64,000 nucleotides of DNA, from contig JBBRSP010000013.1 of NCBI GenBank assembly GCA_038245295.1, forward strand, positions 64,001 to 128,000, read 5' to 3'. Every line of letters starts with the position of its first letter. Positions within the stretch are counted from its first letter, which is position 1. The translations under genes and the position numbers were made by a program. This document shows positions 45,901-64,000 of the stretch, piece after piece. The stretch comes from Candidatus Binatia bacterium. GTDB lineage: Bacteria; Desulfobacterota; Binatia; HRBIN30. The notes beneath the pieces were generated by a model that saw only the letters and a program-made list of their open reading frames with translations, was not told the origin of the DNA and did no database searches.

Positions 45901-48367
45901 AAGGTGAGTTGTTATTGGTCACTCCTTCCGTCGAACCTATGGCGCCAACAGGAATCGTGTTGATGTGGTTGCCGTCGACGTAGCCGGTGACATTTACGGC
46001 GATGGTGCAAACCGAGTTCGCGGTGATGCTGGCGCCGGACAGGCTGAACTGGCTGGTGCCCGGCACCGCGGTTACGGTACCGGCGCTGCAGCCGCTGCCG
46101 CTGAAGCTCGGGTTGGCGTTCGCGTGCACTTGCAAGTTCGCCGGCAGAACGTCGGTGAGCGACACATTGGTGAGATTGAAGGCGCCAGGCTGGTTGTTGG
46201 AGATGGTAATCTGCGCCGTCACCGGTGCGCCGCCGTTGCTGACGACGGGGAGGAACGCCTTGTTGAGGGATACGGCGGAAACGGCGCGGGTCAGTGTGGC
46301 ACTGGCCGTGGTGTTGTAGGTCGCGCCCTCAGCGGTGGTCAGAGCATTGGCGGCGAGCGTATTCACCGACGACCCCACCGTGACCGGTGTCTTGATGTTG
46401 ACCTGGATGGTGCAGCTGGTGGCCCCGACACCGAGGAATCCGCCGGACAACGACAGGGTGAGCGCCGCCGGCACGGCCGTGACCGTTCCGCCACAGGTGT
46501 TCACGACGTTCGGCGTCGCCGCCACGCTGTGACCGGCCGGGAGGTTGTCGGTGATCCCCATATTGGAGAAGGCAACGACGCCAGCCGTATGGCTGATCGT
46601 GATCGTCATTCGCGAAACACCCCCCGGCACAACGGTCGCCGGAGCGAAAGACTTCGCCACATTGGCGGCGCGCGACACGGTCAATGTGGCGGTTGCGGCG
46701 TTCTGATTGCTTCCGCCATCGGTCACCAGGGCGTTCGCGGCGACCGTGTTGGTGCGACTCCCGTTGGTCGCATTGATCGACAGTGCGATCGGGACGACGA
46801 CGGCGCAGTTGCCGTTGGCCGGAATGATGCCACCGGTAAGGCTGATCGACGTGGCCCCGGGCGGCGCGGTCAGGACGCTGCCGCACGATGTCGAGGCAGC
46901 CGGGGCGCTGCCGACCGTGAAACCGGTGCCGAGCGTGTTCAGATCGTCGACGAACGAGCTGATCGCCGCCGGCGCGCTGCCGGCATTGGCGAGGATGATG
47001 GTCAGCGTTGTGCTTCCACTCTGCACCGGTGTCGCCGGGCTAAACGACTTGGCCACCGTCACCGGGCTGGCCAACACCGTGAGCGTCGCATTGGTGGCGA
47101 CGTAGTTGATGCCACTGAACGTGCCGGCCGGAATCACGTTGACCAGCGCGCCCGATGTGTCGCCGCGCACCACAGCGGTGACGGTGCAGGCACCAGAGCC
47201 ATTGATGTTCGGGTTGCTGGCTAGCGGGATGGTGCCGCCGGTGAGCTGAATCTGGTTGGCCGTGAAGGAGGCTGAGCCGCCGCATGTTGTCGACACCGGA
47301 CCGACAGCGGTGATGCCGGCAGGCAAATTGTCGATCAGGGCAGCGCCGGTAATCGCCGTCGGGTTATAGTTGCGCAAGGTGAGGGTGATGGTTGACGTCG
47401 CGCCGGCGAAAATCGTCGCCGGGGAAAAGGCTTTGGTCACCTGGGCACCGGTCTGAACCGTGATGCTGCCGCTGATCGCGGCGCTGTTCGATGCACCCTG
47501 CGTAGTTGTGATTGTATTGGCGGCAAGCGTGTTGGTGACCGACGCGTTCTGCGCCACGCTGGCGCGGGCGCTGTCGACCGTGACGCGCACGGTGATCGTA
47601 CAGGAGCTGTTGGCAGCGATCGACGCACCGGTCACGCGGAAGCCAGTGTCGTTCGGATCGAGACTGCCGCCAGCCGCATCGGTGAAGCTGCCGCCGCAAG
47701 TGCCGCCGGTGGCAACCGGGCTGGCGATGACCAGGGGCACAGGCAGGTTGTCCGTAACGGAAAGATTGGTGAGCCCGCGGATGTTGGGGTTCGAGAGCGT
47801 GATGGTCACCAGGCTCGAGCCGGTGATGTGAACCGCGGTGCCCGTCAGACTCTTGGTGCCGGTGAGCGCCAGAGTGTTCGCTACAGTCAGCGTCGCGCTT
47901 GCCGCGGCTGGATTGGCGCCCTGACTCGATGTCACCCCTGCGGCTGGAATAGTGTTGACGTAGGTTCCGGAAGTATTCGAGGTAACCACGACACTGATCG
48001 CGCAGGTGCCAGAGCTAGTGCCGGTTCCGGCCGGCACGGTGCCGCCGCTGAGCGAGACGCTGGTGTTCGGTAGAATTGCCACACTTCCACCGCAGCTATT
48101 GGCGCTCACCGAGCTGACCACGACACTGGCGGGGAGCGTGTCGGTGAACGACGCGCCCGTCGCCGGCACCATGGCCGAGTTGAAAAGCTGGATGGTCAGC
48201 GTCGAAGGATCACCGGGGAAGATGTTGATTGGGCTGAAGCTTTTGTTCACGTCGACGACGGCGAGCGCCGACGCAGCGTAAACCGAGAGGGCAAAAACAA
48301 TGCCGAGACCCTTCAAAACGGTGCCGCCCACACTGCGGCGAAGTGTTACAAATGGCTGAATTGTCAT
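39950..48367 (-). CDS. Giant secreted repeat protein/adhesin (2805 aa) with DUF11-like Ig-type repeats and PT linkers
   Basis: Signal peptide; 9 Cys-containing K(S/A)FxP-type repeats; PT linker; 8 repeats with DxDx(D/N)-xxxSPGD; one further DUF11-like unit; Cys-rich C-terminal domain. Confidence 0.85.
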   Translation of the reverse strand: MTIQPFVTLRRSVGGTVLKGLGIVFALSVYAASALAVVDVNKSFSPINIFPGDPSTLTIQLFNSAMVPATGASFTDTLPASVVVSSVSANSCGGSVAILPNTSVSLSGGTVPAGTGTSSGTCAISVVVTSNTSGTYVNTIPAAGVTSSQGANPAAASATLTVANTLALTGTKSLTGTAVHITGSSLVTITLSNPNIRGLTNLSVTDNLPVPLVIASPVATGGTCGGSFTDAAGGSLDPNDTGFRVTGASIAANSSCTITVRVTVDSARASVAQNASVTNTLAANTITTTQGASNSAAISGSITVQTGAQVTKAFSPATIFAGATSTITLTLRNYNPTAITGAALIDNLPAGITAVGPVSTTCGGSASFTANQIQLTGGTIPLASNPNINGSGACTVTAVVRGDTSGALVNVIPAGTFSGINYVATNATLTVLASPVTVAKSFSPATPVQSGSTTLTIILANAGSAPAAISSFVDDLNTLGTGFTVGSAPAASTSCGSVLTAPPGATSISLTGGIIPANGNCAVVVPIALSINATNGSRTNTVAANALVTDGGSNQNAATATLTVSRAANVAKSFAPATVVPGGVSRMTITISHTAGVVAFSNMGITDNLPAGHSVAATPNVVNTCGGTVTAVPAALTLSLSGGFLGVGATSCTIQVNIKTPVTVGSSVNTLAANALTTAEGATYNTTASATLTRAVSAVSLNKAFLPVVSNGGAPVTAQITISNNQPGAFNLTNVSLTDVLPANLQVHANANPSFSGSGCSAGTVTAVPGTSQFSLSGASITANSVCTIAVNVTGYVDGNHINTIPVGAIGSTEGVTNNNSPSATLTILRNVNIGKFFTPNPLEAGGQSILTLVLYNSNTVTRTLSAPGVIDTLPAGLTVAGAATTSCSGATVIAPLGGTQIEVDGALLAAGGACNVNVPVAASPGSYTNTIPANAVSTVEGSTNPDPASAILVVVSKPSIIKAFNPVSIPVGSTSTITFTLSNPNSAALLPGGLTGASFSDTLGGISINGNQSAGGTCVGVAANTFTTGQTNLSFSGLTIPAGSPGTCTVTVVVTSLLPGVYPNQASGVLTNQTQTAGTASAVVNLTVLGNSPTITKSFSPDPIFGGGVSTLTFTLTNTNLVAVALANPAFTDVFPITPGAMTIANLTVVNTCGGTIADAANGSLNVGDVGVRYNNGSVAANSSCTVAVNVTVSNGGVYSNSSSTLASNNAGTSTLPASDTLTVPTSTPTTTPTTTPTPTITPTQTPTATPSPTQTATSTATPKPVLSAQKIAILFADNDLDGIASPGDVLRYQVSIANSGNGVATSVAFNDIPDNVTSLVPGSVTTTQGSIVSGNGGAPPLTIDLGSVAASGAATITFDVTINALPPGVTSVRNQGTVASNELPTVSTDDPSVDGTNDPTVTQVTGNPVLRASKTVALLSDNDFNGIPSPGDRLRYDISIQNTGDAAATAVLFNDTPDGNAPLVAGSVTTTQGTITSGNVVGSTSVGVDLGTLPAGSSVTITFLIDVANPVAAGVTQLSNQGHISSNELPVAVTDDPSQPGNADPTVTTIDVEAVLKATKVATLLVDADADGQPSPGDTLLYRVTIRNSGNAASASTSFNDLIESNMALVVGSVQTSAGTVSVGNNPGDTSINVLVGTIPGNDETVSITFRTTINNPLPANVTAVQNQGSVSGGNFSTQLTDAPDTAAINDPTRTTVTTTPAISLSKAVFLLTDADADGFPSPGDTLGYDLTLRNTGNQAAAGVSISDTPDSNTTLVVGSVQTHDGVVTVGNSPGDTHLVVDVGTLPGGGASTTITFRVIIVDPLPAGVTQVSNQAQATGANFPAEPSSDPTTALDRDPTITQVTAGPAGQGTKTATLFVDADGDGAPSPGDTLLYLFAFTNTGNGSVGSVTAVDNPDPNTTLVVGSVQVSQGTVTSGNSPGDTSIGVDVGTIPGRGGRVTGSFLATINSPLPPGVTQVANQAQGFVFGFPSGGTDDPTTAAPNDATVTHVTAAPAGSADKTATLFNDADGNTVPSPGDTLLYRIDIVNSGNSAATGAFLNDNLDPNTTLVVGSVQATQGTITSGNSPGDSAVGITIGTVPGGGGRFTASFLATINSPLPAGVTRVANQAVGGSNELPFVATDDPSTSTPNDATGTVVTAAPLLEVSKRDSLFTDADGDNAPSPGDTLLYVIQVNNSGNIAATLTRLTDAIDTNAVLVVGSVQTSAGTVSSGNNPGDTSVAVAMGSIPGLGGAVTVRFLVTITDPLAPGVTQISNQALVSSNELPTVASDDPDTAPLHDPTVTLVTAGGAGTAEKRAVLFTDADGNGVPSAGDTLLYLIDFTNTGNGAVTGISAIDDPDPASTLVVGSVRISQGTITSGNNPGDTRVAADVGTIPGRGGSVSTSFLVTINNPLPPGVTQLSNQAQGFIFGFPTGGTDDPATAAPGDATITQVTAALVPATPTSTSASRTATPTRTSTFIPGTGAPDLRLVKRHSGSFRPGQRGTYTLTLTNVGSSATAGVTTIIDDLPVGLTYASASGSGWACSAFAQRVTCLHANSLAVGVIATITLDVVVANDAPAVVVNIASVSTANDTNAGNNQSSDVTNIQGGVVAPVGSLTPTRTVIAGIPTATRTPVANLATRTPTGTPVPGAPTATVTPFTAVGPCLGAKTLKFIWTAQRPHEVQLQLSATRCPAPPGCYLPPLNDSVIQAPIDIAVVDAAGATIATTLPGPPLSQGRGCPGGSDAFCSTQLLLHHTDRMHFVYGTNGLTTLRAKLHIELAGSFPTLRSPLDLSIRDASGYFAFARYPICTTRVVRSITSVQCRG

Positions 48368-50350: not shown

Positions 50351-52891
50351 CTATTCTGCTGCGGAACTTTGCTGGGCGGGGTCGGCGCGGATCCGGCGCC
50401 CGTCCCGCACCGTTTGCTCACGCTGCCATTGCAGCCGCACGGTGGTCAGGTACCGGTCGATCTCGAGATGTACCGCCCCGTTGCGGATGGGCAGCGCAGC
50501 GAGGTTGCGTTCGTTGCTGTCGGCTAGCCAGGCCCTACGGATCTCGACACCCAACTCGTCTGCCAGGGCGAGCGCGGTCGTTCGTGGCACTCCGCCGGCT
50601 CCCCAATTGCGGAGCCGCACCACGATCCCGTCGCCCCGGTGCGCTGGTTTGACGGCGATGACTTCAACGAGGCAATCGTCCACCCGCGCGATCCAGCGTG
50701 GCTCGGGGCGACCTGCGGTTCGATCGACACACGATTGTAACGCGCGCCCCGCCTCGATCAGCGCCGCCTGGTCCGCATGCTCGAGCCATCGCAATGCGAT
50801 GTCGGTAATCTGTGTGCCGCGCTCGTGCCCCCTGGCGGGCGCCAGCACGGGCACGAATCCGAATGCGACCTCCTTGGTAGCCGTCCGTGCCACCACGATC
50901 TCGACGAGCCCGGCGACGGTGGCGTGCAGCGCCGTCGGCACAGCGGCGGCGAATACCAGCCCGGCGGCTGCTTGAGCAGCGTCCTGCAGCGCTGCAGCAA
51001 AGGAGTGAAGCGGCCAGAACGTCGGCTCGTACCAGCGTTGGAGTGGCCGGGTGACCACGCCTCCTGGCTGGTGCATCAGTAGGGACGAGATGGAGGAACG
51101 TTGGTGGATCGAAAGCGTGACGGTGCGCCGGTCGGGTGCCTCGATCGAAGTGGTCACCACGATGTTCGGGTGGTGGGCCGACAGCTCCACCGATACTTGG
51201 GTTTCGCGGTTATCCAGTGCGCCCAGGACAGTGAGGTGAGCCCCCTCATCGCGGCAGGAGACCGTGATCCGCGCCGGATGGTGAATGGAGCGATCCGCGA
51301 CGGCAAAGCGACCGCCCCAGAACTCACTACCCATGCGCCAGAGCCCGCCGCTCTCCATATAGCTCACCAACTCGAGGCTGGGCGCCGCGAGCAGCTCATT
51401 CCCCGCCGCGTCCTCGAGGCTCACCAGCGTGCCACCACGCGCCTCGTCGAATACGGCAGTCAGCCATTTTGTCGTCACCTGTACGACCGAGCCCTCACGC
51501 GTAAAGGACGGCAGAGAATCGGATCTCCGATCGTTCGCGTCGCAACGGGTGATGGCGACGCCGGCGAAACGATCGCCGGTGGTGGCGCCCCCTGGCGGAC
51601 TGGCCAGAGCAGCCCGCAGCCAGGGCCACTGTTCGCCGTTCGTGACCCGATCGGGCGCCGTGCCGGTGATGAAGTCATGGTGGTTCGAGGTCACCGCGGT
51701 CCACCAGGCCGCCGTCTCCCCGGACGCCGGCAGCGACGGCGAGGTCGGCCCACCCGGCGCTACCAAATTGCGGGCTCGTTCATTGTCGGCGGCTACGAGG
51801 TGGCGGCTGAGATCCCTGCAGGCGCGCTTCAGGCCGGGTCGAGACGCGTAGAAACCCATCCAATATGGATTGGGATCCAGGCGGAGCGTCGGCAGCGCGG
51901 CGCGGTGGTGCGCAACCAGATCGAGGTAGTCGTCGAGCCCTGCATTCACGACCCACACGCCCTGGCGTTCGTAGGTGGCCTGGTTGAAGCGGTCCAGCAG
52001 CTCGACGAGACGCGGGATGGGTCTCACGAAATCGGATCCGATCGCCAGCAAGAGATAGGGGGTGCGGGCTAGTCGTGACAGCTCCTCGATGTACCCCTCG
52101 ATACGGGTGGCAACGCGATGCTCGCGCCGGTCGGGCCAGGCAGCGGGAAGACCCAAGACCCGGCTCAGCCCGCCGCTGGCGATGAGATCGCCATGCCCGT
52201 AGCCGTAGGCGTGCCAGTGGGTGAGCACCTCACTGCCATCGGGACCGCACCAGATGAAGTCGGCGGTCTTTTCGGCAGTGAGCTTTGCAGCGCTTGTCCC
52301 CGGTCGCGGAAAGTTGGCCGCCGACTCCCACTCGGCGGCGGGGAATCGCATGCCGTCGATGCGACATATCGCGGCGTAGGGCACGCCGGCGGCACTGAGG
52401 AGCGAAGGGATGCCGGGCGAGTGACCGAAGCTGTCGGGCAGGTAAAGCGTCCGAGGCTCCTGGTTCATTCCCCGCGATCGGAGCCACTCCTGGCCGATCA
52501 GAAGGTCACGCAGAAGACACTCGTCCTCGGGAAGCAACGTATCAGGTGTGGTCACCCCGCTGCCGGTGAAGCGCAGGCGCCCTTCATTCACGAGCTGTCG
52601 AAAGATCGAGCGCTGCTGCGGACATCTCTCCCAGTACATGTCTGGGAAGAAGGCGCACTCCAGGCTGAAGACGCGACGCGGTTCCAGCAGCAGCTCCGCG
52701 ATGGCCCGATCGAGGGTGCGGCGCACGCAGAAGCGGAAGTACTGCCGAGACGTCAACAGCCAGTCGGGATCCCAGTGCGAGGACTCGGTCACCACCATCA
52801 CTTGGACAGCATCCAGGGGTACACCCAGACGCTGGCGGAGGTCAGTCTCGCTCGGCACCGAGCCTGTCAACGCCGACCCGGTCGTCGTCAT
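50351..52891 (-). CDS. Glycoside hydrolase family 38 (alpha-mannosidase-like)
   Basis: SHWDPDW zinc motif, PDSFGHS nucleophile motif, Y.G.Y.SR, HHDFITGT; no signal peptide seen. Confidence 0.8.
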   Translation of the reverse strand: MTTTGSALTGSVPSETDLRQRLGVPLDAVQVMVVTESSHWDPDWLLTSRQYFRFCVRRTLDRAIAELLLEPRRVFSLECAFFPDMYWERCPQQRSIFRQLVNEGRLRFTGSGVTTPDTLLPEDECLLRDLLIGQEWLRSRGMNQEPRTLYLPDSFGHSPGIPSLLSAAGVPYAAICRIDGMRFPAAEWESAANFPRPGTSAAKLTAEKTADFIWCGPDGSEVLTHWHAYGYGHGDLIASGGLSRVLGLPAAWPDRREHRVATRIEGYIEELSRLARTPYLLLAIGSDFVRPIPRLVELLDRFNQATYERQGVWVVNAGLDDYLDLVAHHRAALPTLRLDPNPYWMGFYASRPGLKRACRDLSRHLVAADNERARNLVAPGGPTSPSLPASGETAAWWTAVTSNHHDFITGTAPDRVTNGEQWPWLRAALASPPGGATTGDRFAGVAITRCDANDRRSDSLPSFTREGSVVQVTTKWLTAVFDEARGGTLVSLEDAAGNELLAAPSLELVSYMESGGLWRMGSEFWGGRFAVADRSIHHPARITVSCRDEGAHLTVLGALDNRETQVSVELSAHHPNIVVTTSIEAPDRRTVTLSIHQRSSISSLLMHQPGGVVTRPLQRWYEPTFWPLHSFAAALQDAAQAAAGLVFAAAVPTALHATVAGLVEIVVARTATKEVAFGFVPVLAPARGHERGTQITDIALRWLEHADQAALIEAGRALQSCVDRTAGRPEPRWIARVDDCLVEVIAVKPAHRGDGIVVRLRNWGAGGVPRTTALALADELGVEIRRAWLADSNERNLAALPIRNGAVHLEIDRYLTTVRLQWQREQTVRDGRRIRADPAQQSSAAE

Positions 52892-52913
52892 TCGGCGGGC
52901 GTCGGGTTGCTCA

Positions 52914-53504
52914 TCACCACTTCCATCCCTCTCCTCCGGATAGCAGGTGAGCCGCAACCGCGACCCCCCCCACACCCAGTACCACGTGAAACGCGGTCGA
53001 CAGCAACAGCCCGACGACGGTCGAGAGTAGATACGCGTGCGCCGGGACCTGCGCCGCCCCTGCAAAGAGGTCGACCAACGGGTTCGCTCCGAGCAAAAGC
53101 CGCAGGGCGAGGATGGTCGAGACCGGGTGGGCCCGTACGCGATCCTCCCACCGCCGGATCGAGACGGGAATGCGAGCGTTTTGCCAACCCTGGTCCAACC
53201 TGCGTGCCGCCGCGTAGGTGACCACGCTGGCGAGTAGTGCGGCGGCGAAGGAGTACGCGAAGGCGAGCGGTAGAGGCCAGACCGCGGTGGCTGCCCAAAC
53301 CACCGGTGCCATCATCAGCAGCGCGAACATGCCGACTGCCAGGGCGATGAACAGAAGCGGCCCCCACAGCCCTGCCGCGGCGATCCGTGCGTGGATCACG
53401 GCGGGATCGGTGAAGGTAGAACTCGCGTCGTAGCTCCATCCGATCACCAGGAGTGCGGCCAAGATCGCCAAGATCGCGACGGTCGCGATGGATGATTTCT
53501 TCAT
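52914..53504 (-). CDS. VTT domain (TVP38/TMEM64, DedA superfamily) membrane protein
   Basis: Hydrophobic, GLWGPLLFI, LRLL, YLLSTVVG pattern; GGAGG RBS. Confidence 0.75.
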   Translation of the reverse strand: MKKSSIATVAILAILAALLVIGWSYDASSTFTDPAVIHARIAAAGLWGPLLFIALAVGMFALLMMAPVVWAATAVWPLPLAFAYSFAAALLASVVTYAAARRLDQGWQNARIPVSIRRWEDRVRAHPVSTILALRLLLGANPLVDLFAGAAQVPAHAYLLSTVVGLLLSTAFHVVLGVGGVAVAAHLLSGGEGWKW

Positions 53505-53552: not shown

Positions 53553-54068
53553 TCAAATGGCGAGCAATCGATCCGCCTCCACGTCATATCCCGCACGGCA
53601 GAGTGCGCGGGCCACCGCCGGCATGACTTTCGGCCCGTTGTTACAGGGGCTCGTCGGCACGTCCGGTGTGGCACGCAGCTGTTCCAACAGGTCCGAGGAA
53701 ACGCCAACTGCCAGCCGGTCGCAGACCGCGTACATCCCCTCCGATCCTTCCTCCACCATGTTGTGGCGCAACAAGATCGCCCGAAGCGTCTCCACGATGC
53801 GCGGAGCGGGTGACGGCACGAGAAGCGCCGCGATCGCGCCGTGATCGAGACGAAGTCGGCTCGCAATGGGAAGCGCTTCGCCGCCCCGTAGTCGCGCTGC
53901 CGCCGGAAGCAGGATCTTCTCTTCCATGCCGATGTGCTTGAGCAACCCAGCGCGAAAGAGACTGTATCCGTCCAAGTCGACGTGCTCTGGATCCGCAACC
54001 GCCTTGCAGAGCAGCCCGTCCAATCGTTCGTGATCGTTCGTGAGAAAGGTTTCGATCGGTCCCTTCAT
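53553..54068 (-). CDS. Hemerythrin (HHE) domain protein
   Basis: DH, HIGMEEKILLP, DH and HNMVEE ligand pattern. Confidence 0.85.
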   Translation of the reverse strand: MKGPIETFLTNDHERLDGLLCKAVADPEHVDLDGYSLFRAGLLKHIGMEEKILLPAAARLRGGEALPIASRLRLDHGAIAALLVPSPAPRIVETLRAILLRHNMVEEGSEGMYAVCDRLAVGVSSDLLEQLRATPDVPTSPCNNGPKVMPAVARALCRAGYDVEADRLLAI

Positions 54069-54142: not shown

Positions 54143-54835
54143 TCATTTGGGCCTCTTCGCCGTAGGGTCGTTGGGTGCTTCTCGGAAAATGGGTCGAGTG
54201 TCTACCGGCGCGGCGCGGGGCGCCCATAGCGGATAGTCGATTCCGGCGAGCCGGTTGATGACGAACCCTTGCACAACGAGCAGCACCACCGCGAGCATGA
54301 GCACGGCGAGTTGCCACGGCTCGCGAAGAATTCCGAGTGAGACGATCAGGGTCGTCGCACCCGCGGGCGGGTGTGGCACCCTGAGCCACACCATCGCGCC
54401 GCTGGTGAGGCCGAGTGACAGCGCGGCGGCGGCGACATTGGTCCACTGCACGCCTGAGGCAAGGGCGGGGCCGTGTTGGGTGAGCCCGAAGGCGAACAGG
54501 GCGAGGTAGCCGGCCAGCACGCCGATCAGATGGCCGCCGAGCGTGTTGCGTGGCGACGCCGCAGGTTGCGTCGGCGTGTAGAAGAGCAGGAATGCGGTCG
54601 GCCCGAGGGATGGAAAAATAAATGGTGCGCCCGTGATCAGTGCGGCCATTGCCATCAACCCAATGGAGATGATGCCGTTCAGCAGGGCAAACAGTCCGAG
54701 CACCCCAATCTTTGAATGTCGGGCTTGCAGCGCGGGCAGCTGCAAGCGACGCGCCACACCCCAGAGCACGGCGGCCATATCTCCGCCGATCGGCCCGGGG
54801 CGCTGCGCCGCTTCGTTTTCGGGTTCGTGCGCCAT
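54143..54835 (-). CDS. HPP family membrane protein (nitrite transporter family)
   Basis: PSLGPT, SPRN..GGH and HPPAGAT motifs; TGATG-coupled to the upstream gene. Confidence 0.9.
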   Translation of the reverse strand: MAHEPENEAAQRPGPIGGDMAAVLWGVARRLQLPALQARHSKIGVLGLFALLNGIISIGLMAMAALITGAPFIFPSLGPTAFLLFYTPTQPAASPRNTLGGHLIGVLAGYLALFAFGLTQHGPALASGVQWTNVAAAALSLGLTSGAMVWLRVPHPPAGATTLIVSLGILREPWQLAVLMLAVVLLVVQGFVINRLAGIDYPLWAPRAAPVDTRPIFREAPNDPTAKRPK

Positions 54836-55026
54836 CAACGCAGATACCGGTAGAACGCGGCCGATCCAGCCGCCAGCACCACCGACAACGCGGCCGACGT
54901 CCACGCGAGACCGCTGTCGTGAGCGTGCAGCGCATCGAGCCCGACCGTTAGCAAAAAGATCTGCAGCGCCAGCAAGACGACAACGAAGGTTCCGATCGCT
55001 GACGATACCTCACGCGGCCGCGCCAT
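54835..55026 (-). CDS. Small two-TM membrane protein (DUF6755-like)
   Basis: 63 aa, LQIFLLTVGLDA motif; start and stop both overlap neighbouring genes. Confidence 0.7.
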   Translation of the reverse strand: MARPREVSSAIGTFVVVLLALQIFLLTVGLDALHAHDSGLAWTSAALSVVLAAGSAAFYRYLR

Positions 55027-55523
55027 CAGGCGGCCCCCGGGCCGAGCGCCCACACCAGCCCGTCGGGCCGTTCCTCGATGTCGATCCGCCCGAGCGGACG
55101 CTGCGGCGGCCCGGCGACGACTGAGCCGGTCCGCGCATCAAACAGGCCATCGTGACACGGGCAAAGCATCTGCTCCATTGCAGGGCTCCAAGTCACCACG
55201 CAGCCGAGGTGTGTGCACTTCTGACTGAAGGCGCGCAGCTCGCCGCCCTGCAGCCGGACCAGAATGGCCGGATCATCGTTCGTCGGATACCGGAACAGAT
55301 AGGCCGCGCCGGCGGCTACCGCGCTCGCGGCAACGATAGAACGCGGCGCACCGCGGTTGACCGGACGGAGCGACGTCCATGCCGCCACACCCACGCTCGC
55401 CACTGCGAAGACTTCGGAGGCAAGCACGAGGTAGCGCGCGAACTCCCGCCGCGTCACCCAGTCCTCGCCCTCGGATGTGAAGGGGAAATCGAGACGCCAC
55501 TTCGGCACTTTCGCGTCATCCAT
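55026..55523 (-). CDS. Rieske [2Fe-2S] protein with twin-arginine-like motif and TM anchor
   Basis: TRREF plus hydrophobic helix; CTHLGC and CPCHDG boxes; GPP.RPL; GGAGG RBS. Confidence 0.9.
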
Positions 55524-56145
55524 GCCCGCCCTCCTCTTCGAGTCCAAAAGGATCGTCTTGCCAGGCGCGGGCCTGACGACCCGCCAGCACGTCGAGCGCA
55601 CCGTCCTCGCGGACAACGGTATAGACCTTCGTGCGCACGGTTTGACGCCCGAAGACAAAGTCGTCGACCGGCACGCCGGTGCGGCTCGCCACGAACTGGT
55701 CGCGCGTACCGAACCACAGCGCCTGGCTCGGGCACACGGAAGCACACATCGGCGCAAGCTCTTGCGACGTGCGGTCGTAGCACATGTCGCACTTCATCAT
55801 CTGATTGAGATCGACCATGAGCTTCGGAACACCGAAGGGACAGGCGAGGACGCAGTTCGCGCAGGCGATGCATCGTGGCTTGAGGGCGGACTGCACGATC
55901 CCGTCTTCATTCTGTTTGATCGCGTCGGCCGGGCATACCTCGGCGCACGTCGGATCCTCGCAATGCATGCACACCATCGGGACTGTTTGCGTGCTCGCAC
56001 CGCGGTCGACAAAATCGAGATGAATCATCGAATGTCCGCGGTGTGTCCCGCACTCGCCGCAGGCGTGCACGCAGGATTGGCAACCGATGCAGCGGCTCTG
56101 ATCGATGACAAAAATCTTCTCGTTTGGATGGGCGAGCCGACTCAC
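55516..56145 (-). CDS. Four-cluster Fe-S subunit (DmsB/NrfC-like)
   Basis: [42 protein letters not shown]...CASVCP. Confidence 0.92.
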
Positions 56146-58376
56146 GAACTTCCCCCCGTTTGCAGCGCCAGCTCGCGTGTGTCGTGCACTGCCCCGCCCG
56201 GTCCGATTCGTTCGATGCGCACCGCCGAGACCTTATACTCGGGAATCTTTGAAATGGGGTCGAGGTCGCGATGCGTGAGCTGATTGGCCGCCTGCTTCCC
56301 GGCCCAGTGATAAGGGATGAAGATCGTATCGGGCCGAATTGTCTCTACGACCGCGGCCGGCAAAGTCATCGAGCCGCGGCGCGACGTCACACGGACCATG
56401 TCGCCGTTGCTTATACCGTGACGTGCAGCGAGCACCGGATGCATCTCGCAGAGTGGCTCCGGGTACTGGGCGACCAACGGCCCGATCCGGCGCGTCTGTG
56501 TGCCAGACAGGTACTGACTGACCACGCGTCCCGTCGTGAGCCAGATCGGGAATTCGTCGTCGATCACTTCCGCCGGTGGGCGATAGCGGATCGGGTGAAA
56601 TTTGGCCCGGCCGCTCTGGGTGTAGAAGCGTCCGCCCTCATAGAGGCGAGGCGTACCCGGATGATTCTCGGCTGGGCACGGCCAGAAGACGCCGAGTTCG
56701 TCCTGTACGCGTTGCCATGTGATCCCCGTGTAATCTGCCGTCCCGCCGTGTGACGCCACGCGCAACTCGTTGAAGATCTCTTCGGTGCTCGCGTACGGAA
56801 AGTAGGCCCCCTTCCCGAGCCGCTGGGCAATGTCGAGGAGAATCTGCCAATCGAGCCGAGCATTGCCGGGCGGGCGAACAGCGGCATTGATCTTCACGAC
56901 ACGTCCTTCCACCGTCGTCGACGTGCCTTCGTCCTCCTCGTGCAGAGAGCCGGGAAGAACGATGTCCGCATGGTGAGCCGACTCGGAGAGAAAGAAGTCG
57001 ATGACGGCGTAGAACTCCAGTCGGTCCAGCGCCTCGGCCGTGAAGTTGCTGTCAGGCAAGGAAACGGCGGGATTGAAGCAGATCGAAATCAAGCCCTTGA
57101 TCTCGCCGGCATGGATCGCGTTCATGATCTCTTGCGCGGTCTTGCCCTTGCCGGGAATCTCGGATTCCTCGCAGCCCCATACGGATGCGATATAGGCGCG
57201 GTGCTCGGGATTAGTGATGTCGCGATTGCCGGGGAGTTGATCGCATTTGTGCCCGTGCTCACGACCACCCTGTCCGTTACCCTGGCCGGTAATCGTCGTC
57301 ACGCCGCAGCCGGGCTTGCCGAACTTCCCGGTCGCCAGGCCCAGATTTATGCAGGACAGAACGTTCTCAACACCCTTGGTGTGGTGCTCGATCCCGCGCG
57401 CGTGCATCAGCATGCCGGTTTTCGACGTGCCCCACAGCTCGGCGGCCTGCTCGATCCGCTTCGCCGGAACGCCGGTCACGCGGGCCCCCCACGCGGGCGT
57501 GTACTCGCGCACGGCCTCAGCCGCCGCGGCGAAGTCTTCGGTGTGCTGATCGATGAATTCATGATCAAGCCAATCGCGTTCGATGAGGATGTGAAGAATC
57601 GTGCCCATGAGCGCCGAGTCCGTGCCGGGACGAAGGCCGAGAAATACGTCGGCCGTGCGGGCGAGCGGCGTTACGCGAGGATCGGCGACGATGAGCTTCG
57701 CGCCGCGATCGCGCGCCTGCCAGATATAACTGGTGGTGATTGGAGCACACTCTGCAACGTTGGCGCCCGCCACGAAGACGACGTCGGCGAGGGGAATGTC
57801 GCTCCATGGGTTGCTCGCTCGGTCGATACCGAGCGCTTTCTTGTTTGCGGCTCCGGCCGAGACCATGCAGAGTCGGCCGTTGTAATCCAGATTGGCCGTG
57901 CCCAGAGCCAATCGAGCAAACTTGCCAACCAGGTAGGACTTCTCGTTCGTCAGCGAAACACCCGAGAGCATGGCGAACGCATCCGGACCATGGGCGGCCT
58001 GGATGCGGCGGATCTCGGCGACGACACGATCGAGCGCCGCGTTCCAGCCGATCGTCCGAAAGCCGCCGGGCGCGTCCGGGGCACGCTCGAGCGGCTCGAT
58101 CAGACGATCGGGATGGTTTCCTTGCAGATACCGTTTGACGCCCTTGGGACAGAGCTTGCCTTCGTTGAACGGAAACTCGTACCAGGGCTCGAACCCGACC
58201 ACGCGCTCGTCGCTCACCTTGAGGATGATGCCGCACTGCTGTCCGCAAAAGCAGCAATGCGTCTTCACCTCGCGATCGATCACGAGCCCCTCGTTCCAAC
58301 CGCCCGGCGGTGTCTCGTTGAGATGGGGACCGTAGCGGGCGATGAGCCCCGCTTCGCTCAGCGGCGGTTTCGCCAT
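56142..58376 (-). CDS. Molybdopterin oxidoreductase catalytic subunit, NasA/NapA/FdhF group, cytoplasmic
   Basis: CCFCGQQC...LCPKG FS0 cluster, NGRLCMVSA Mo-ligand Cys, [13 protein letters not shown]; no Tat signal. Confidence 0.92.
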
Positions 58377-59413
58377 CAGCCGAACCCTCCAACGCGTTGC
58401 GTCTGCGCGAGCGCGACCAGCCGCCGGCGGCAAAGTGGGCAGATATCCTGATAGTGACCGCCTCCCGCAAGTTCATAGTGGAAACCGACCTGCGGGAGGA
58501 CGTCCTTGAGGTCGCCGATTTGCAGCACGGAGGCGAATGCGACGCCGCACTCGCTGCAGTGCTGTGCCGGCCCTTCGGCGCCGGCCTGCACGTAGAACTG
58601 AACACCGAGATTCGCGGGGCGTTGAAAGATGTGGAAGAGTTTACCGAAGGGCAGATACATCAATCCGATGATCACGGTGAGGGCGTGAACCGTGGTGAGG
58701 AACGTGTAGAAGCGACCGCCCATCCAGAGCGTCGAAGCGGTGAGCATCAGGCCGGTAACGGAAACGGCGAAGAGTCCGGCCAGGGCGAGGAAGTCGCTGG
58801 CTCGCTCGACCGCAAGCGCTCCCGGGTCGCGTACGCGGCGACCGAGAAAGAGAAAGACACCGGCCAGCACGAGGAACGCGGCGATATCAAGGGCGTGAAA
58901 CATCAGCCAGCCGACGAAGCTGTGAGAATCGAATGCGAGGGTGCCGATGTGGGCGACGAAAGCGCGGTACTGGTCTGGGTCCTGGCCGACCGATTCGAAG
59001 TGGAGCCAGCCGAATACCAGGGGAAAGGTGACAAGGGAGGCCAGCATGCAACCCCAGAAGACGAGCTGATGCGCGATCCAGCGCGAAGTGGAACGGTGGC
59101 GGATGAAGGTCTGGCCGGCGAGGTTCGTCGCCACCAACCCGACCAACCGCGCCAAGTTCCGCAGACCACCGGAGCGGAAGGCTTCCCACCCACGGCGATT
59201 AAGGCGCGCGGTTGGCGGACGCTGCAGCCAGACGCTGTAGCGGTAGGCGATCCCGAAAATCGCGAACAACGTCCCCAGCAAATACCCGGCAAGTGCCGCG
59301 TCGAACCACCGCAGCCCGCCGCTACCGAGCGCTCCGAGCGCGAGAGCGACCACGACGGCAAGCAGTCCCCACAGGACCCCCCTACGGTCCAATGACAGAT
59401 CCGACGTCTTCAT
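58376..59413 (-). CDS. NarI/DsrM-like membrane cytochrome b with C-terminal CxxC...CxxC tail
   Basis: About 6 TM helices; [13 protein letters not shown] and H-x17-H (HALT...PFGKLFH); CSECG and CPLCR. Confidence 0.7.
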
Positions 59414-59483
59414 TTCTTGATTCCCGCCACTCCGCTAGGTTCCTTGCACAGTTCAGCGGCTAGTCCAACAATGGTGCCGAGAG

Positions 59484-59682
59484 CTAGCGTCGGCGCAGCC
59501 GGTCGCCTGAGGCATCGTTCCAGGGAATGCCGGTATCGTGAACCTTTCCGTCCTGGTGCCTGACCAGTGATGCGTAACCGAGCCGACGCGTGCGCCTGCA
59601 CGACGGGACGAGGCCCGCAGGGAAGCGCATCGGCGCATTCGCGGCACGCGCGTATCTTCGCGAGCAGGTGCGGCAAGGTCAT
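59484..59682 (-). pseudogene. Uracil-DNA glycosylase family fragment, frameshifted and truncated
   Basis: IRACRECADALPCGPRPV...GQAPGRK, then one extra base, continuing VHDTGIPWNDASGDRLR before a TAG stop. Confidence 0.8.
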
Positions 59683-59771
59683 TCGGATATCCACGCAGTA
59701 AAATAGCGATTGAACAACTACAGTAGCGCACCCTGCTCTAGCGGATAGGCAATTTGCACCCCCTCCACCCG

Positions 59772-59916
59772 CGCGAACTGTGCGGATGTCCACGAGCCGT
59801 TCGATACCGTAGACCTCAAGCAACGCGATGAAGCGCTGGATCGGCAAGGTGGAATGCCCAAGCGTGAAAACCGCATGTTCCGGCCATTGCGTTTCCTGAG
59901 AAGGATGCTCGCTCAT
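59772..59916 (-). pseudogene. DUF488 family N-terminal fragment
   Basis: VFTLGHSTLPIQRFIALLEVYGIERLVDIRTV, after which similarity is lost. Confidence 0.7.
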
Positions 59917-59917
59917 C

Positions 59918-61126
59918 TCAGGCACCCCCCGAACTGACACGCCGCGCGGTCAGCAGCATGGGGCCGAAAACGATTAGAAATAGCCCGAACGCACCAACCC
60001 AGCATACCGCCGACACGCCAAGGAGAAGTAACATGTCGTCCGTATGCCAAGACGCACAGACCCGCGTAATCGCGGCGACGTTGATGAGGATGAAAAGCGC
60101 TACCGTTGCTCTGCTTGCCGTCAATACGCGCCCGGTATGGCCAAGCGTAACGCGGGGCATCACCGCAAGGATCATGGTGGCGATGGCTCCTGCCGTGAGT
60201 GCATGAATCGCCGAGGCAACTGGAACTCCTGCATGAAGAACCGAAAGGGCGAGAAGCATGACGCCGATCACGAGCCATGCGTAGCCAACATGCAGAATGA
60301 ACAGTAACGGCTCAGCCCATGTCGTATCGCCTGCCCAGCGGGCAAGACGCCACGCGTTGCATAAAGCGGCGGCGACGAGGATCATGCCTGTCACTTTAAG
60401 ATCGGGCAGCGCGGCCCACAGGATAAGTCCCACGCAAAGCAAACCCACCGCCGCAGTATCAATAGCGCTATGGACCGCCGGAAGACGCGCAGCCTGCCGC
60501 TTCGACAGCCAGTTGCGCGTGAAGCTGGGGATGATGCGCCCGCCAACGACCGAAATCAGCAGGATCGGTGCCACAATGCCGAGGCGCCAGCCAAGGCCGT
60601 TCGGTACAGCAACTTCCAACGATTCAAGATGCATGAGCAGATCGGCCACAATGAAAAGCATAAGAGGCGTGGTCATCGGCAGGTTGCGCCAGTTACGTCC
60701 GACAATGATTTCGCGGGCGGCGACCGCCAGCAGCATCACCGGAAAAGACAAATCGGCGGCGATCACCAGCCAAGCAGGAAGATCGGCCGAAATCATGCAG
60801 ACAATGCGGCCGAGCAGCCACAGACTTGCAAGCATGGCCAGCGGGCCGTCCCGCACCGGAAGGCGACCGGTCCAGTTTGGAATGGCCGTCAGCAAAAACC
60901 CACCAACCGCCGCCATCACGAAACCAAACAGCATTTCGTGAATATGCCATGCCAGCGCATCAAAGCGGGTTGGCAGACGGATGTAACCGAGGAACATGAG
61001 AAGCCAAAGAGTAATGGAGACGATGGCCCAACTCGCCGCTGCAAGAAACAGCGGTCGGAATCCGTAAGTGAGCAACGCCGGTTGTCGTAAATGGCGCTGA
61101 CGCTCTTCTTCGGTGATGGCGATCAT
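59918..61126 (-). CDS. nnrS: NnrS family NO-response membrane protein
   Basis: GFRPLF, WHIHEMLFG, GFLLTAIPNWTG, GGRIIPSFT, LHVGY, HAL, RVTLGHTGR. Confidence 0.93.
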   Translation of the reverse strand: MIAITEEERQRHLRQPALLTYGFRPLFLAAASWAIVSITLWLLMFLGYIRLPTRFDALAWHIHEMLFGFVMAAVGGFLLTAIPNWTGRLPVRDGPLAMLASLWLLGRIVCMISADLPAWLVIAADLSFPVMLLAVAAREIIVGRNWRNLPMTTPLMLFIVADLLMHLESLEVAVPNGLGWRLGIVAPILLISVVGGRIIPSFTRNWLSKRQAARLPAVHSAIDTAAVGLLCVGLILWAALPDLKVTGMILVAAALCNAWRLARWAGDTTWAEPLLFILHVGYAWLVIGVMLLALSVLHAGVPVASAIHALTAGAIATMILAVMPRVTLGHTGRVLTASRATVALFILINVAAITRVCASWHTDDMLLLLGVSAVCWVGAFGLFLIVFGPMLLTARRVSSGGA

Positions 61127-61422
61127 GACTTCCTCCGCATCGTGGCGGCTGTCTTGACAGACAGCGTTGCGTCATTGCGGTCAATGGCACGCTCAGCCAC
61201 AACACGCAGAGCATCGGATGCTCAAAGCCGCTTTGAATATTCAGACGATACATTGGATATACGGCAATAATCGCGCGCTGCAAGGTCGAAGTCGCCGATA
61301 CTTCCAGTGCGCCGCAACGGGGAGCGGAGGCGATCCGCGCAGTGTCCGGCGCGAAGCTGGAGAACCGCCCCTACACTCCGCGCCGTGAAGAGAAGCGGCA
61401 TCGGAGAATCGTCGTCGCCGGA

Positions 61423-62100
61423 TCACTCGCTGGCGCCGTCGGCGATGCAATTGAGCCGGGCGACATCGAGGAGCTCGATGTGATTGCGCGCCGCGCTGAT
61501 CAGCCCGTCGGTTTGCCAGCGGCTGGTGATGCGGATGGCCGATTCGACGGTCGTTCCAACCATGTCCGCCAACTCCTGGCGCGTCACGCTCAGCTGCGTC
61601 CGACCGCCCTTCTCCACGCCTATCTTCGGAGCCAGAGCCAGAAGGGTGCGCGCCAAGCGCTGCTCGACGCGCTCCAAGGCAACCGAACGCAAACGTTCGT
61701 GTGCGTTACGTAGGCGCGCCGTGATCTGCTCCATGATGGCGTTGCGCAGCGTCGGGTAGCGACGACAAAGGTCCTGCACGACCGTGGCGGCAACGCGCAG
61801 TACGCTGCCGTTATCCACCGCCACGGCGGTTGCGGGGTAAGGGCGCCCCTCGATGGCGACGACAGCGCCGAACAGCTCGCCGGCCGCCACCACTTCCAGC
61901 ACGATCTCGCGCCCGGCGGGCCCCGACTTGATGATGTGTACCTTGCCCTGACGCACGACCCATAAGGAATCCGCCTTCTCTCCTTCGCCGAACAGTACCT
62001 GACCACGATGCACCGCGACGATGCGCGCCGCTGCGTCTAGGACAGCTCGTTCGGGCTCCGGGAGAACGCGAAATCCGGGCAGGGCGGAAATTACCGTCAT
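61423..62100 (-). CDS. Crp/Fnr family transcriptional regulator (Dnr/HcpR/NnrR-like, no FNR Cys cluster)
   Basis: cNMP-type barrel (GELFG, YPATA), VEQRLA, HTH TRQELADMVGTTVESAIR. Confidence 0.92.
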   Translation of the reverse strand: MTVISALPGFRVLPEPERAVLDAAARIVAVHRGQVLFGEGEKADSLWVVRQGKVHIIKSGPAGREIVLEVVAAGELFGAVVAIEGRPYPATAVAVDNGSVLRVAATVVQDLCRRYPTLRNAIMEQITARLRNAHERLRSVALERVEQRLARTLLALAPKIGVEKGGRTQLSVTRQELADMVGTTVESAIRITSRWQTDGLISAARNHIELLDVARLNCIADGASE

Positions 62101-62101
62101 G

Positions 62102-62144
62102 TATGACGCGCGTCATAATCCGTATGGCCGACAAACGGTAGAGT
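62102..62144 (+). promoter_or_regulatory. Crp/Fnr-type operator with class II promoter
   Basis: Perfect palindrome TATGACGCGCGTCATA (62102-62117, TGA-N6-TCA); TAGAGT -10 at 62139-62144 puts the box centre at about -41.5. Confidence 0.75.
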
Positions 62145-62167
62145 CTCAGCACCCAAAGGAGGGATGT

Positions 62168-62632
62168 ATGAGCATTCTCGAGTTACTCGACCAGCAGCAC
62201 CGCGAGGTGGTGGCGCGCATGGACGATATCCGTGGTTCCGCCAGCGATGGCGACCTCGAACAATTTCTCGCCTTTCTGCACGACGAGGTCGAAAGTCACT
62301 TTCGCCTCGAGGAAGAGGGTCTGTTCCCTGAACTGCAGCAGATCCCTTGGATTGCCAACGGCCCATTGCGCGTCATGGAAGTCGAACACTCTACCTTCCG
62401 CTCCATGTTGTCCGGCGCCGATGGGGCGGCGGCACAAGCGGATCTAGCCAACCTGCGCGGCCGTCTCCTCGACATCATCGGCTTGCTGCAAAGCCACATC
62501 CAGAAAGAGGATGGAATGCTCTTTCCGATGGCGTTTGAGGCCCTCGGCCCCGAGCAGTGGGAACGGATCGAACGCCTGCCCGTGATGAGGACGCACGCCG
62601 TGCCCGACGGGTCGCTTCCCGCCGGGCGGTAA
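62168..62632 (+). CDS. Hemerythrin (HHE) domain protein
   Basis: QH, HFRLEEEGLFP, GP..VM..EH, HIQKEDGMLFP; AAGGAGG RBS. Confidence 0.9.
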   Translation: MSILELLDQQHREVVARMDDIRGSASDGDLEQFLAFLHDEVESHFRLEEEGLFPELQQIPWIANGPLRVMEVEHSTFRSMLSGADGAAAQADLANLRGRLLDIIGLLQSHIQKEDGMLFPMAFEALGPEQWERIERLPVMRTHAVPDGSLPAGR

Positions 62633-62665
62633 AACGGCCCCAGCGTCCAGGCGCGCGAGGAAGCG

Positions 62666-64000
62666 ATGACCGAGATTGCAGTCCCACAGATATACGTCGA
62701 AGTACCGGAAGACGGCTATCACCAGGCGCTGATCGCCTGCCAGGTGGCCTGTCCGGTACACACCGACGCCCGTGGGTACGTGCGAGCCATCGCCGCCGGG
62801 CGCTTCGACGAAGCCTATCTGATCGCCCGCGGAGCAAATCCCTTCGCCTCCATCTGCGGCCGCATCTGTGGCGCACCGTGTGAGGCCGCATGTCGACGCG
62901 GGCTCGTTCCGCGCGTCGACGCCGACGGTCACTTCATCGGCCCCGACAAGCCGGTGGCGATCCGGGCGCTCAAGCGATTCGCTTGCGAGAAGCACGGACC
63001 TGAGGTTGTCCCAGCCGACGAGATCCTCGCCGCCCTGCGTCTCCACAGACCGGTTACGGGAGCGGGTCCGGAGGAGATGGCAGCCCTTTTGCGGCGTACT
63101 ATGGCCGGCCAGTTCGAGCCGGCGGCGGGGCAAACGATTGCCATCGTGGGCGGCGGCCCGGCCGGTCTGTCGGCAGCCCATGACCTGGCACTGCTCGGCT
63201 TTCGCCCGACGGTATTCGAGACGGAACGGGTGGCCGCCGGGATGCTCGCCGTCGGTGTTCCGAGCTACCGCCTGCCGCGCGAGGTGATCCGTCGCGAAGT
63301 CGCCGTCATCGAGGCCCTCGGCGTGGAAATCCGCCTCGGCGTGCGGGTCGGAGTCGACGTCAGCTTTGCCGATCTGCGCCGTGACCACGCTGCCGTGCTC
63401 ATCGCCGTCGGCGCCAAGCAGGCGCGTTTGCTCGGCATCCCCGGTGAACGCGGGCCGCGTGTGTATGGTGGCGTCGACTTCCTACGTGCCGTTGCCGTCG
63501 GTGAATCTCTCGATCTCGGCGAGCGTGTTGTTGTCATCGGCGGCGGCAACGTCGCCTACGACGTAGCCCGCAGCGTCGTGCGTCAAGCCGCCTACGACGC
63601 GGCGCGAACCGCGGCGCGGCTGCCGGGGAAACACGAGGTCGTTCTGGTGTCGCTCGAAACCCTCGAAGAGATGCCCGCCGACACAGTCGAAATCCGTGAA
63701 GGCGACGAAGAGGGCATTGCGCGGCGCAACGGTTGGGGGCCCGTCGAGATCCAACGCAACGCCGCCGGTAACGTCACCGGGGTTCTGCTGCGCCGTTGCC
63801 TGCGTGTGTACGACGAGCAGCGCCGCTTCCAGCCGGTGTATGACGAAGAAGCGCGCGAGCTCGTGGCGTGCGACACGGTGTTGATCGCCGCCGGGCAGGC
63901 GCCGGACCTCGGCTTTCTGAATGACGGCGGCACCGACGTGGAGCAGTTCCGCCCAGGCTGGCCACGTGTCGATGCCAACAGTCTGGCGACCACCGCGACG
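62666..64000 (+). CDS. GltD/NfnB-like Fe-S flavoprotein oxidoreductase (3' partial; absent from the ORF track)
   Basis: Manual translation from ATG 62666: CQVACPVH, NPFASICGRICGAPCEAAC, IRALKRF, GGGPAG, GVPSYRLP, GGGNVAYD; frame runs off the window. Confidence 0.9.
   Translation, partial: MTEIAVPQIYVEVPEDGYHQALIACQVACPVHTDARGYVRAIAAGRFDEAYLIARGANPFASICGRICGAPCEAACRRGLVPRVDADGHFIGPDKPVAIRALKRFACEKHGPEVVPADEILAALRLHRPVTGAGPEEMAALLRRTMAGQFEPAAGQTIAIVGGGPAGLSAAHDLALLGFRPTVFETERVAAGMLAVGVPSYRLPREVIRREVAVIEALGVEIRLGVRVGVDVSFADLRRDHAAVLIAVGAKQARLLGIPGERGPRVYGGVDFLRAVAVGESLDLGERVVVIGGGNVAYDVARSVVRQAAYDAARTAARLPGKHEVVLVSLETLEEMPADTVEIREGDEEGIARRNGWGPVEIQRNAAGNVTGVLLRRCLRVYDEQRRFQPVYDEEARELVACDTVLIAAGQAPDLGFLNDGGTDVEQFRPGWPRVDANSLATTAT

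Follow-up and report, generated by a model that had tools for sequence, protein, structure and literature searches.

The membrane-bound nitrate reductase NarGHI of E. coli (PDB 1Q16) combines a NarI-fold membrane anchor, a four-cluster iron-sulfur (FeS) subunit and a cytoplasmic Mo site on a NarG-type catalytic subunit (~1,200 aa, Asp-ligated), with a NarK-type transporter alongside. The soluble NasC of the B. subtilis type (NCBIfam NF047855) adjoins NirB/NirD, NapA of NapAB(C) carries a twin-arginine translocation (Tat) signal, and NasC/NasA are held to be cytoplasmic and exclusively assimilatory in the accessible text of Wells et al. 2023. In B. bataviensis, a short nasC that precedes genes for an Fe-S and a Rieske protein was proposed as an alternative, soluble assimilatory system, with a membrane subunit, Tat signal or quinol link unmentioned in the accessible parts of that paper (Heylen and Keltjens 2012; PMC3475470). 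Here we describe a six-gene operon at 54143..59413 (minus strand) of a 64,000-nucleotide stretch of DNA, referred to as the window, from a Candidatus Binatia bacterium (GenBank GCA_038245295.1, contig JBBRSP010000013.1, positions 64,001 to 128,000). It has a NarI-fold anchor, a four-cluster FeS subunit and a predicted cytoplasmic Mo site in common with NarGHI, as well as, in some relatives, a NarK-type transporter, but a Cys-ligated 744-aa NasC-type subunit takes the place of NarG, the anchor has no His66 equivalent and carries an extra transmembrane (TM) helix, a beta insert and a Cys4 domain, and a Rieske and a DUF6755 protein are added. With the anchor present in Neobacillus and Brevibacillus, the B. 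bataviensis cluster is probably another member of this family. The operon is genuine and widespread, and most likely encodes a variant of membrane-bound nitrate reductase that appears to be uncharacterised. Judged from motifs, topology and gene order, it likely encodes a membrane-bound, cytoplasm-facing quinol:nitrate oxidoreductase, and we assign a probability of about 0.6 to the reading favoured here, a quinol-fed cytoplasmic nitrate reductase with a non-assimilatory role in the window genome. The original prediction, made from the window alone, had proposed a quinol-linked nitrate reductase that is neither Nar, Nap nor Nas; the complex, the NasC-type motif and nitrate as the likely substrate held, while the points on the anchor, the lineage of the Mo subunit and the HPP transporter had to be revised.

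All six open reading frames (ORFs), called on the window, are intact, lie on the minus strand and, as had been predicted, are chained by overlapping start and stop codons at all five junctions, i.e. TGATG at 58376, 55026 and 54835, GTGA at 56145-42 and an 8-nt overlap at 55523-16. They encode the anchor, a NarI-fold membrane cytochrome b subunit (58376..59413; 345 aa, six TM helices, N-in/C-in); a NasC-type Mo-bis(pyranopterin guanine dinucleotide) catalytic subunit with an N-terminal [4Fe-4S] cluster, hereafter the Mo subunit (56142..58376; 744 aa, Cys170 in RLCM, without Tat signal); a DmsB/FdnH-like four-cluster FeS subunit (55516..56145; 209 aa); a Tat signal-anchored Rieske [2Fe-2S] protein (55026..55523; 165 aa); a small DUF6755 membrane protein with two hydrophobic stretches (54835..55026; 63 aa); and an HPP-family transporter in an exchangeable anion-transporter slot (54143..54835; 230 aa). 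The Mo, FeS and Rieske products match the Molybdopterin, Fer4_11 and Rieske families and the sixth carries a TM_HPP domain (94 bits vs 27.2), while the anchor matches Nitrate_red_gam weakly (18.3 bits vs a cut-off of 22.9) and the small membrane protein scores 26 bits against the DUF6755 cut-off of 27. Neither narJ nor a Cytochrome_B domain (the PetB-type partner) was found among the six genes.

A GTDB scan with the anchor yielded 118 confirmed stretches, 80 of which were kept as loci, with the Mo gene at 78, FeS at 68, Rieske at 66, DUF6755 at 60 and HPP at 22. Where sufficient downstream DNA was available, Rieske was present in 58 of 60 loci and DUF6755 in 52 of 58, so the gene order expected of a conserved multi-subunit membrane complex is kept across loci, and the arrangement exceeds chance. 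The two Rieske-less loci (L029 and L047) retain an intact anchor and a mere Mo remnant, with FeS and Rieske missing, and are decayed or mis-assembled operons. Of 120 loci, 7 lacked a usable anchor ORF and were dropped, as were 5 duplicates and 4 of 60 loci collected from the Mo side, whose Mo segments were <550 aa; two genome entries, G005 and G240, are one genome. The suggestion that similar clusters occur in other phyla was confirmed. The closest named anchor relatives include Candidatus Binatia and Acidimicrobiia records, and further members were found on replicons of Deinococcus and Brevibacillus, in Neobacillus and in Chloroflexia. Of 121 genomes of the window's class, 30 carry the family, as do 15 of 151 Acidimicrobiia; a sample of 150 other genomes from across the window's phylum contained none. 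Among the 30 best NasC-model loci of each sample, the anchor adjoins the Mo gene in 28 in Acidobacteriota (251 genomes) and 12 in Actinomycetota (301 genomes). One record titled Hyphomicrobium sp. (L001) holds the whole operon with NnrS and hemerythrin genes, its core genes being 80-90% identical to those of the window and much nearer to them than other Binatia copies are, which points either to mis-binning of the contig or to a recent transfer.

The ligand motif NGR(L/F/Y)CM and a second motif, TGQGNGQG(G/A)RE, are near-invariant in 96 Mo-subunit rows and identical to those of nirB-linked NasC, while FdhF differs (RxCH, RGQNNVQG). A twin-arginine motif was found in 0 of 95 Mo subunits and 0 of 94 FeS subunits, in line with the predicted NasA-type catalytic motif (RLCM) without Tat signal; the 16 Cys of the FeS subunit, in four groups, are at least 95% conserved (95 rows). 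The best NCBIfam model for the Mo subunit is NasC (NF047855) at 796 bits, under its cut-off of 1100, which nirB-linked soluble NasC matches also miss; the narG model TIGR01580 gives 53 bits (cut-off 1084) and the NapA model 282 (cut-off 904). In a 111-row tree, whose references were labelled by annotation and neighbours and not by experiment, 80 anchor-linked Mo subunits (40 from Mo-side NasC-model loci with an adjacent anchor and 40 found earlier) formed one clade (SH support 0.966) with no anchor-less member inside, and 15 anchor-less NasC loci (14 in the tree) fell outside together with the nirB-linked references. IQ-TREE on 40 of the 111 rows gave ultrafast bootstrap values of 95 for the membrane clade, 100 for this clade plus soluble NasC and 100 for FdhF. 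L229 and L233, two NasC-like proteins that have no anchor and carry Arg in their second motif, branch beside the membrane clade with weak support. By motif and phylogeny, the Mo subunit is a Nas/Nap-type nitrate reductase of the NasC lineage, sister to the soluble B. subtilis-type NasC; the latter shares its active-site motifs and lack of a signal peptide, but none of the 15 anchor-less loci has an anchor, a four-cluster subunit or a Tat Rieske. Rather than nesting within soluble NasA or formate dehydrogenase clades amid unconserved neighbours, the Mo subunit thus stands in a clade of its own, apart from the soluble NasC and FdhF references as had been expected, and belongs to a conserved complex. 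Identity as Nap was ruled out by the motif, the tree and the 0 of 95 Tat count. In three homologues (P0141, P0148 and P0265) the anchor reading frame continues into that of the Mo subunit, probably because of frameshift errors where the two genes overlap at TGATG.

Nitrate is the likely substrate of the Mo subunit, as suggested by fusions of the anchor to NarK and by NarK, NirB or NirK neighbours. Among 16 long homologues scanned, a NarK-type domain is fused to the anchor in P0122, P0216 and P0219 and partially in P0265, and in Deinococcus a NarK gene follows the operon. Another reaction, i.e. formate oxidation, nitrite oxidation or turnover of another oxyanion, might be considered given that the best PDB sequence matches of the Mo subunit are formate dehydrogenases and that HPP is a nitrite importer where tested; it is highly improbable, because 94-96 of the 96 rows have Met and Thr-Gly in place of the His and Arg of formate dehydrogenases, FdhF stands apart in the tree with a support of 100, and the NarK, NirB and NirK neighbours favour nitrate reduction. 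Motifs and tree together rule out formate dehydrogenase identity.

The AlphaFold2 model of the anchor (predicted local distance difference test, pLDDT, 95) displays six TM helices, an outward three-strand beta insert (137-162) and a small C-terminal domain, and the positive-inside rule places both termini, H115/H261 and the C-terminal domain on the cytoplasmic side. The best folds were tied between EtfD (Z 11.3, root-mean-square deviation (rmsd) 4.6, 224 aligned) and NarI (Z 10.5, rmsd 5.4, 184 aligned), both well above the next unrelated rows. Foldseek returned no match at E 0.001 or better, and HdrE, DsrM and QmoC chains were not among the fold matches listed, which does not exclude such likeness. 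A NarI profile matched at E 3e-4 and aligned H243 and H261 with NarI His187 and His205. All 109 locus-derived anchor rows keep H115, T129, H243 and H261, and among 40 Mo-side loci the four are kept in 39, 39, 40 and 40, respectively. The position H115+10, equivalent to the second of the NarI heme ligands His56/His66, is Ala, Ser or Gly in all 109 rows and never His, which ruled out the canonical two-heme, four-His NarI. Of the NarI-like cytochrome b foreseen by the original prediction, the fold therefore stood, while the four-His NarI did not, the ligand spacing being EMO/HdrE-like, and a HycF-like metal domain had been missed.

The 14 and 18 spacings of the anchor equal those of SaEMO H87/A101/H233/H251, a comparison by spacing and not by residue-level alignment. 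In the accessible text on SaEMO, H87/H251 bind the proximal heme, H233 belongs to a stacked distal twin heme at -220 mV, and A101 corresponds to a Ser in HdrE that is a predicted ligand of the second distal heme (bioRxiv 10.64898/2026.08.18.745454). The EMO/EtfD and HdrE proteins (PDB 9OJN) thus share with the anchor the top fold match, the three-His pattern and a hydroxyl residue at +14 (Ser in HdrE), but the anchor stands alone without CCG domains and its partner is a Mo enzyme. By conservation, the proximal heme would be held by H115/H261 and the distal site formed by H243 with T129 (or H173). Three heme models remain, given the EtfD precedent taken up below and the incomplete conservation of H173, which most rows have but which is Asn in 19 of 43 diverse anchor rows: a proximal plus a twin heme, which we put forward tentatively, and a proximal plus a single distal heme on H173/H243 or a proximal heme only, both of which are possible but somewhat less likely.

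At the anchor's C-terminus, a CxxC..CPxC motif is almost invariant and the domain resembles HycF in structure (Z 6.4, rmsd 1.8, 52 aligned) and profile (E 0.0028). As far as the accessible text goes, the HycF metal site of formate hydrogenlyase (FHL) is located at the junction of HycF with the four-cluster HycB and with the Mo enzyme FdhF (PDB 7Z0T; PMC9474812). Both systems have a CxxC-x34/35-CPxC site on a subunit that adjoins a four-cluster protein and a Mo enzyme from a shared family, but in the operon it forms the C-terminal end of a cytochrome b and there is no hydrogenase. The HycF-like site and its contacts in FHL support a cytoplasmic Mo-FeS arm, which this domain may help to dock.

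The Tat signal foreseen for the Rieske subunit was borne out: 95 of 96 Rieske proteins have a twin-arginine motif within their N-terminal 60 aa, and this motif is absent from the Mo and FeS subunits. This distribution is compatible with an AioAB/IdrAB-like export, in which the Rieske protein would carry the Mo and FeS subunits out as a hitch-hiker signal and an oxyanion be turned over outside the cytoplasm; AioAB likewise pairs a Mo enzyme with a Rieske protein, its AioA is exported and AioB is the precedent for Rieske-borne Tat hitch-hiking. The lack of NarK in the window genome also fits such export. Nevertheless, export is quite unlikely, since the proximal heme ligands and the docking domain lie on the cytoplasmic side, that domain contacts the FeS and Mo subunits in FHL, NarK is fused to the anchor in several homologues, and binding of the Rieske protein to the anchor is weakly supported. 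In the accessible text of Wells et al. 2023, AioA is without an amino-acid ligand.

In complex prediction, the anchor with three hemes and the Rieske protein scored 0.54 against 0.01 for the best control, runs agreeing in at least 89% of contacts with a partner pLDDT of 80. In calibration, 116 of the 157 solved pairs and 2 of the 215 mismatched ones passed the mark used, with 18 solved pairs and both mismatches among the passes at <=0.60, and the calibration set was without ligands and the hemes unscored, so this model lends weak support to the Tat Rieske binding the anchor. In box 2 the Rieske proteins have Gly/Ala and Phe at the positions where high-potential Rieskes have Ser and Tyr, the loss of which is linked to a lower potential. 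The DUF6755 protein was not detected in the NirB-linked branch described below, and as a heme-ligand donor it was ruled out, having no conserved His.

Under the reading favoured here, the anchor and the Tat-anchored Rieske protein would together form a distal site on the anchor's outer face where quinol is oxidised, electrons would pass from the distal heme site to the proximal heme on H115/H261, and the four-cluster subunit would then hand them to the cluster of the Mo subunit for reduction of nitrate to nitrite in the cytoplasm. In the window clade, defined below, the complex may serve to respire nitrate at low oxygen or to balance redox, with nitrite as the end product and a Nar-like redox loop, while in a related branch the same machine would be used for assimilation beside NirB/NirA. 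A bolder variant, which we regard as doubtful, is bifurcation: the Rieske protein and the His243/Thr129 distal site would make a Qo-like site on a NarI-fold protein and split the quinol electrons, one passing to the Rieske protein and outside acceptors and the low-potential one through an EMO/HdrE-like twin heme to the NasC-type centre. Such a centre is normally fed by NADH or ferredoxin, and Rieske-driven bifurcation would explain why it, unlike NarG, needs a Rieske partner. The haloarchaeal pNar also joins a Mo enzyme to a Rieske protein, but its NarG bears a Tat signal and its cytochrome b is of the bc type, unlike here.

The outward Rieske protein might instead be the entry port for outside carriers (cytochrome c or a bc-type complex), with quinone not the direct donor, as the operon has no PEWY-type cytochrome b and a Rieske/cytochrome b/multiheme c module lies in a divergent operon of the window. 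This is very unlikely: NarI-family anchors of this fold bind quinone in solved cases, the divergent module occurs in at most 1 of 40 other loci tested (by cytochrome b match), and cytochrome c electrons would run uphill in potential to a NasC-type centre. The divergent operon (window 62171-64000, continuing through L081:667-13941, i.e. G000:C13:126666-139940) faces the one studied and encodes a hemerythrin, an FAD/4Fe-4S flavoprotein (642 aa), a Rieske protein, a cytochrome b and a multiheme cytochrome c, as well as a Tat type II DMSO-reductase alpha subunit (periplasmic, NarG/NxrA-like) with beta and EB_dh-type gamma subunits, a chaperone and an alginate-export porin; it represents a further nitrate/nitrite oxidoreductase, equipped with a Rieske/cytochrome b module of its own.

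The sixth gene occupies a slot filled by three unrelated anion-transporter families. Among 53 window-clade loci with full flanks, TDT was found in 33, HPP in 18, neither in 2 and both in 0, and 20 further loci, hand-picked from the 40 Mo-side loci, have NarK near in 10, TDT in 5 and HPP in 4. That HPP is a chance local neighbour was ruled out, the same slot being used in three separate clades with TDT excluded. SLAC1-type channels are permeable to nitrate. The product of the sixth gene may therefore move nitrate and/or nitrite. An HPP nitrite transporter in the complex, as originally proposed, is borne out as far as the TM_HPP domain goes, but it is not specific to the complex, since TDT or NarK holds the slot in relatives. 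In one Acidimicrobiia genome, a NarG/NxrA-like alpha and beta pair directly follows HPP (L159:1466-6386).

The genomic context suggests two lifestyles of the family, a NirB/NirA-linked Binatia branch and a window clade accompanied by nitric oxide (NO)/anoxia genes. With an analyst-set cut at an anchor identity of at least 60%, the window clade comprises 80 loci, and 28 more distant loci are mostly Binatia. Near the former, NirB/NirA was found in 0, NarK in 1 and any of Ric, YwiC, Rrf2, NirK, hemerythrin or NnrS in 47, as opposed to adjacent NirB/NirA in 18, NarK in 12 and NO/anoxia genes in 0 of the latter; none of 20 further Acidobacteriota/Actinomycetota loci has NirB/NirA nearby, and 9 of them have Rrf2, YwiC or Ric. 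On the genome scale, NirB is present in 3 of 32 window-clade genomes versus 16 of 19 in the more distant group. NarG was found in 2 of the 32 window-clade genomes and NirK-like genes in 14, of which 4 are over the cut-off and 3 (L057, L075 and L154) immediately precede the operon in the same orientation. Three genomes (G240, G264 and G251) carry two paralogous operons each, one beside NirB and the other beside HPP or TDT. In the window itself, a hemerythrin-domain protein (53553..54068, minus strand; in 3 of 80 GTDB loci) lies downstream of the operon, and NnrS, related to NO stress (59918..61126), and a Crp/Fnr-family candidate regulator (61423..62100) lie upstream in the same orientation; a search of 59001-62700 revealed neither a canonical FNR nor a canonical CRP box.

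The complex could have the same topology and yet be assimilatory in the window genome, passing nitrite to a lone NirA-like siroheme enzyme. The Mo subunit is sister to assimilatory NasC, the related branch adjoins NirB/NirA/NarK/NrtA-like genes, Heylen and Keltjens view the Bacillus cluster as assimilatory in the accessible text (PMC3475470), and the siroheme enzyme of the window genome scores best on a NirA-family model (below cut-off) with no cysH beside it, cysH adjoining the siroheme gene in 21 of the 28 best siroheme loci. Two other window-clade Binatia (L182 and L183) likewise have a lone siroheme enzyme with no cysH or nitrogen genes adjoining. Such a role is unlikely, as neither the window-clade loci nor the 20 further Acidobacteriota/Actinomycetota loci have NirB/NirA near, window-clade neighbours are NO/anoxia genes, and paralogue pairs keep NirB by the other copy. 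Compared with soluble assimilatory Nas, which draws electrons from NirB/NasB or ferredoxin and is tied to an assimilatory nitrite reductase, the complex has membrane partners, and NirB is missing from the window genome. That the enzyme is not Nas accordingly applies to its architecture, but not to its ancestry, the Mo subunit being of the NasC lineage and one branch standing in NirB/NirA assimilation operons.

Several points weigh against a quinol-fed, non-assimilatory nitrate reductase. The fold Z-scores of the anchor are below the tool's caution line for helical bundles (~13); T129 and H173 are kept in 36 and 22 of 43 rows, respectively, of the most diverse anchor alignment; and the M. smegmatis EtfD, with the same three His, has a single heme and no distal heme in the accessible text (bioRxiv 10.64898/2026.08.18.745454). 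The neighbour contrast is suggestive and not statistical, because the independent clades are few and the metagenome-assembled genomes incomplete. The window genome (G000, 96.6% complete) contains qNor, while none of NirB, NirK, NrfA, NosZ and NarK was over cut-off and NirS was not found with its control being silent, so no nitrite-consuming NirK, NirS or NrfA was detected. HPP has been demonstrated for nitrite uptake only, AtNITR2;1 being a nitrite importer in the accessible text (PMC4137279), and in a genome without NarK, nitrate entry would be accounted for only if HPP carries nitrate too. A Tat-bearing NarG/NxrA-like enzyme already stands next to the operon, and the sole siroheme enzyme (G000:C11:47410-49218), having no cysH beside it, could be NirA. 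Finally, menB (G000:C17:24724-25491) is over and menD under the cut-off with no futalosine gene found, which is a mixed signal as to the pool quinone.

No account of the full complex was found in the literature searched, with most subscription journals outside its coverage, and DUF6755 appeared in 0 papers; the expectation of no biochemical characterisation was thus upheld within that literature, in which no characterised enzyme was found to unite a Nas core and an EMO/HdrE-like anchor with a HycF-like metal site and a Tat Rieske. The operon gives DUF6755 a functional context and corrects the 'MFS transporter' annotation often given to anchor homologues, a label that NarK-anchor fusions may explain for unfused anchors. 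Nitrogen-cycle surveys score nasA/nasC as assimilation, and databases label this enzyme as soluble 'assimilatory'; if most copies were respiratory or redox-balancing, abundant narG-less soil bacteria could reduce nitrate to nitrite for energy and their potential would be mis-scored. Were bifurcation true, it would be quinol-based and without a bc-type cytochrome b, and would make a fourth prokaryotic nitrate reductase architecture that accounts for most Acidobacteriota 'nasA/nasC' genes. Cultured hosts (Deinococcus, Desertimonas and Neobacillus) make the system directly testable.

Elsewhere in the window, the gap between NnrS and the operon (59410-59916) holds sequences with no Pfam match that look like remnants of DUF488 and uracil-DNA-glycosylase genes. 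Downstream of the operon on the minus strand lie a GH38 alpha-mannosidase (50351-53065) and a VTT/DedA-family membrane protein (52914-53504), neither of which was found at related loci among the 80 from GTDB. Further along the same strand, 39950-48367 encodes a 2805-aa repeat protein that looks secreted and is presumably adhesin-like.

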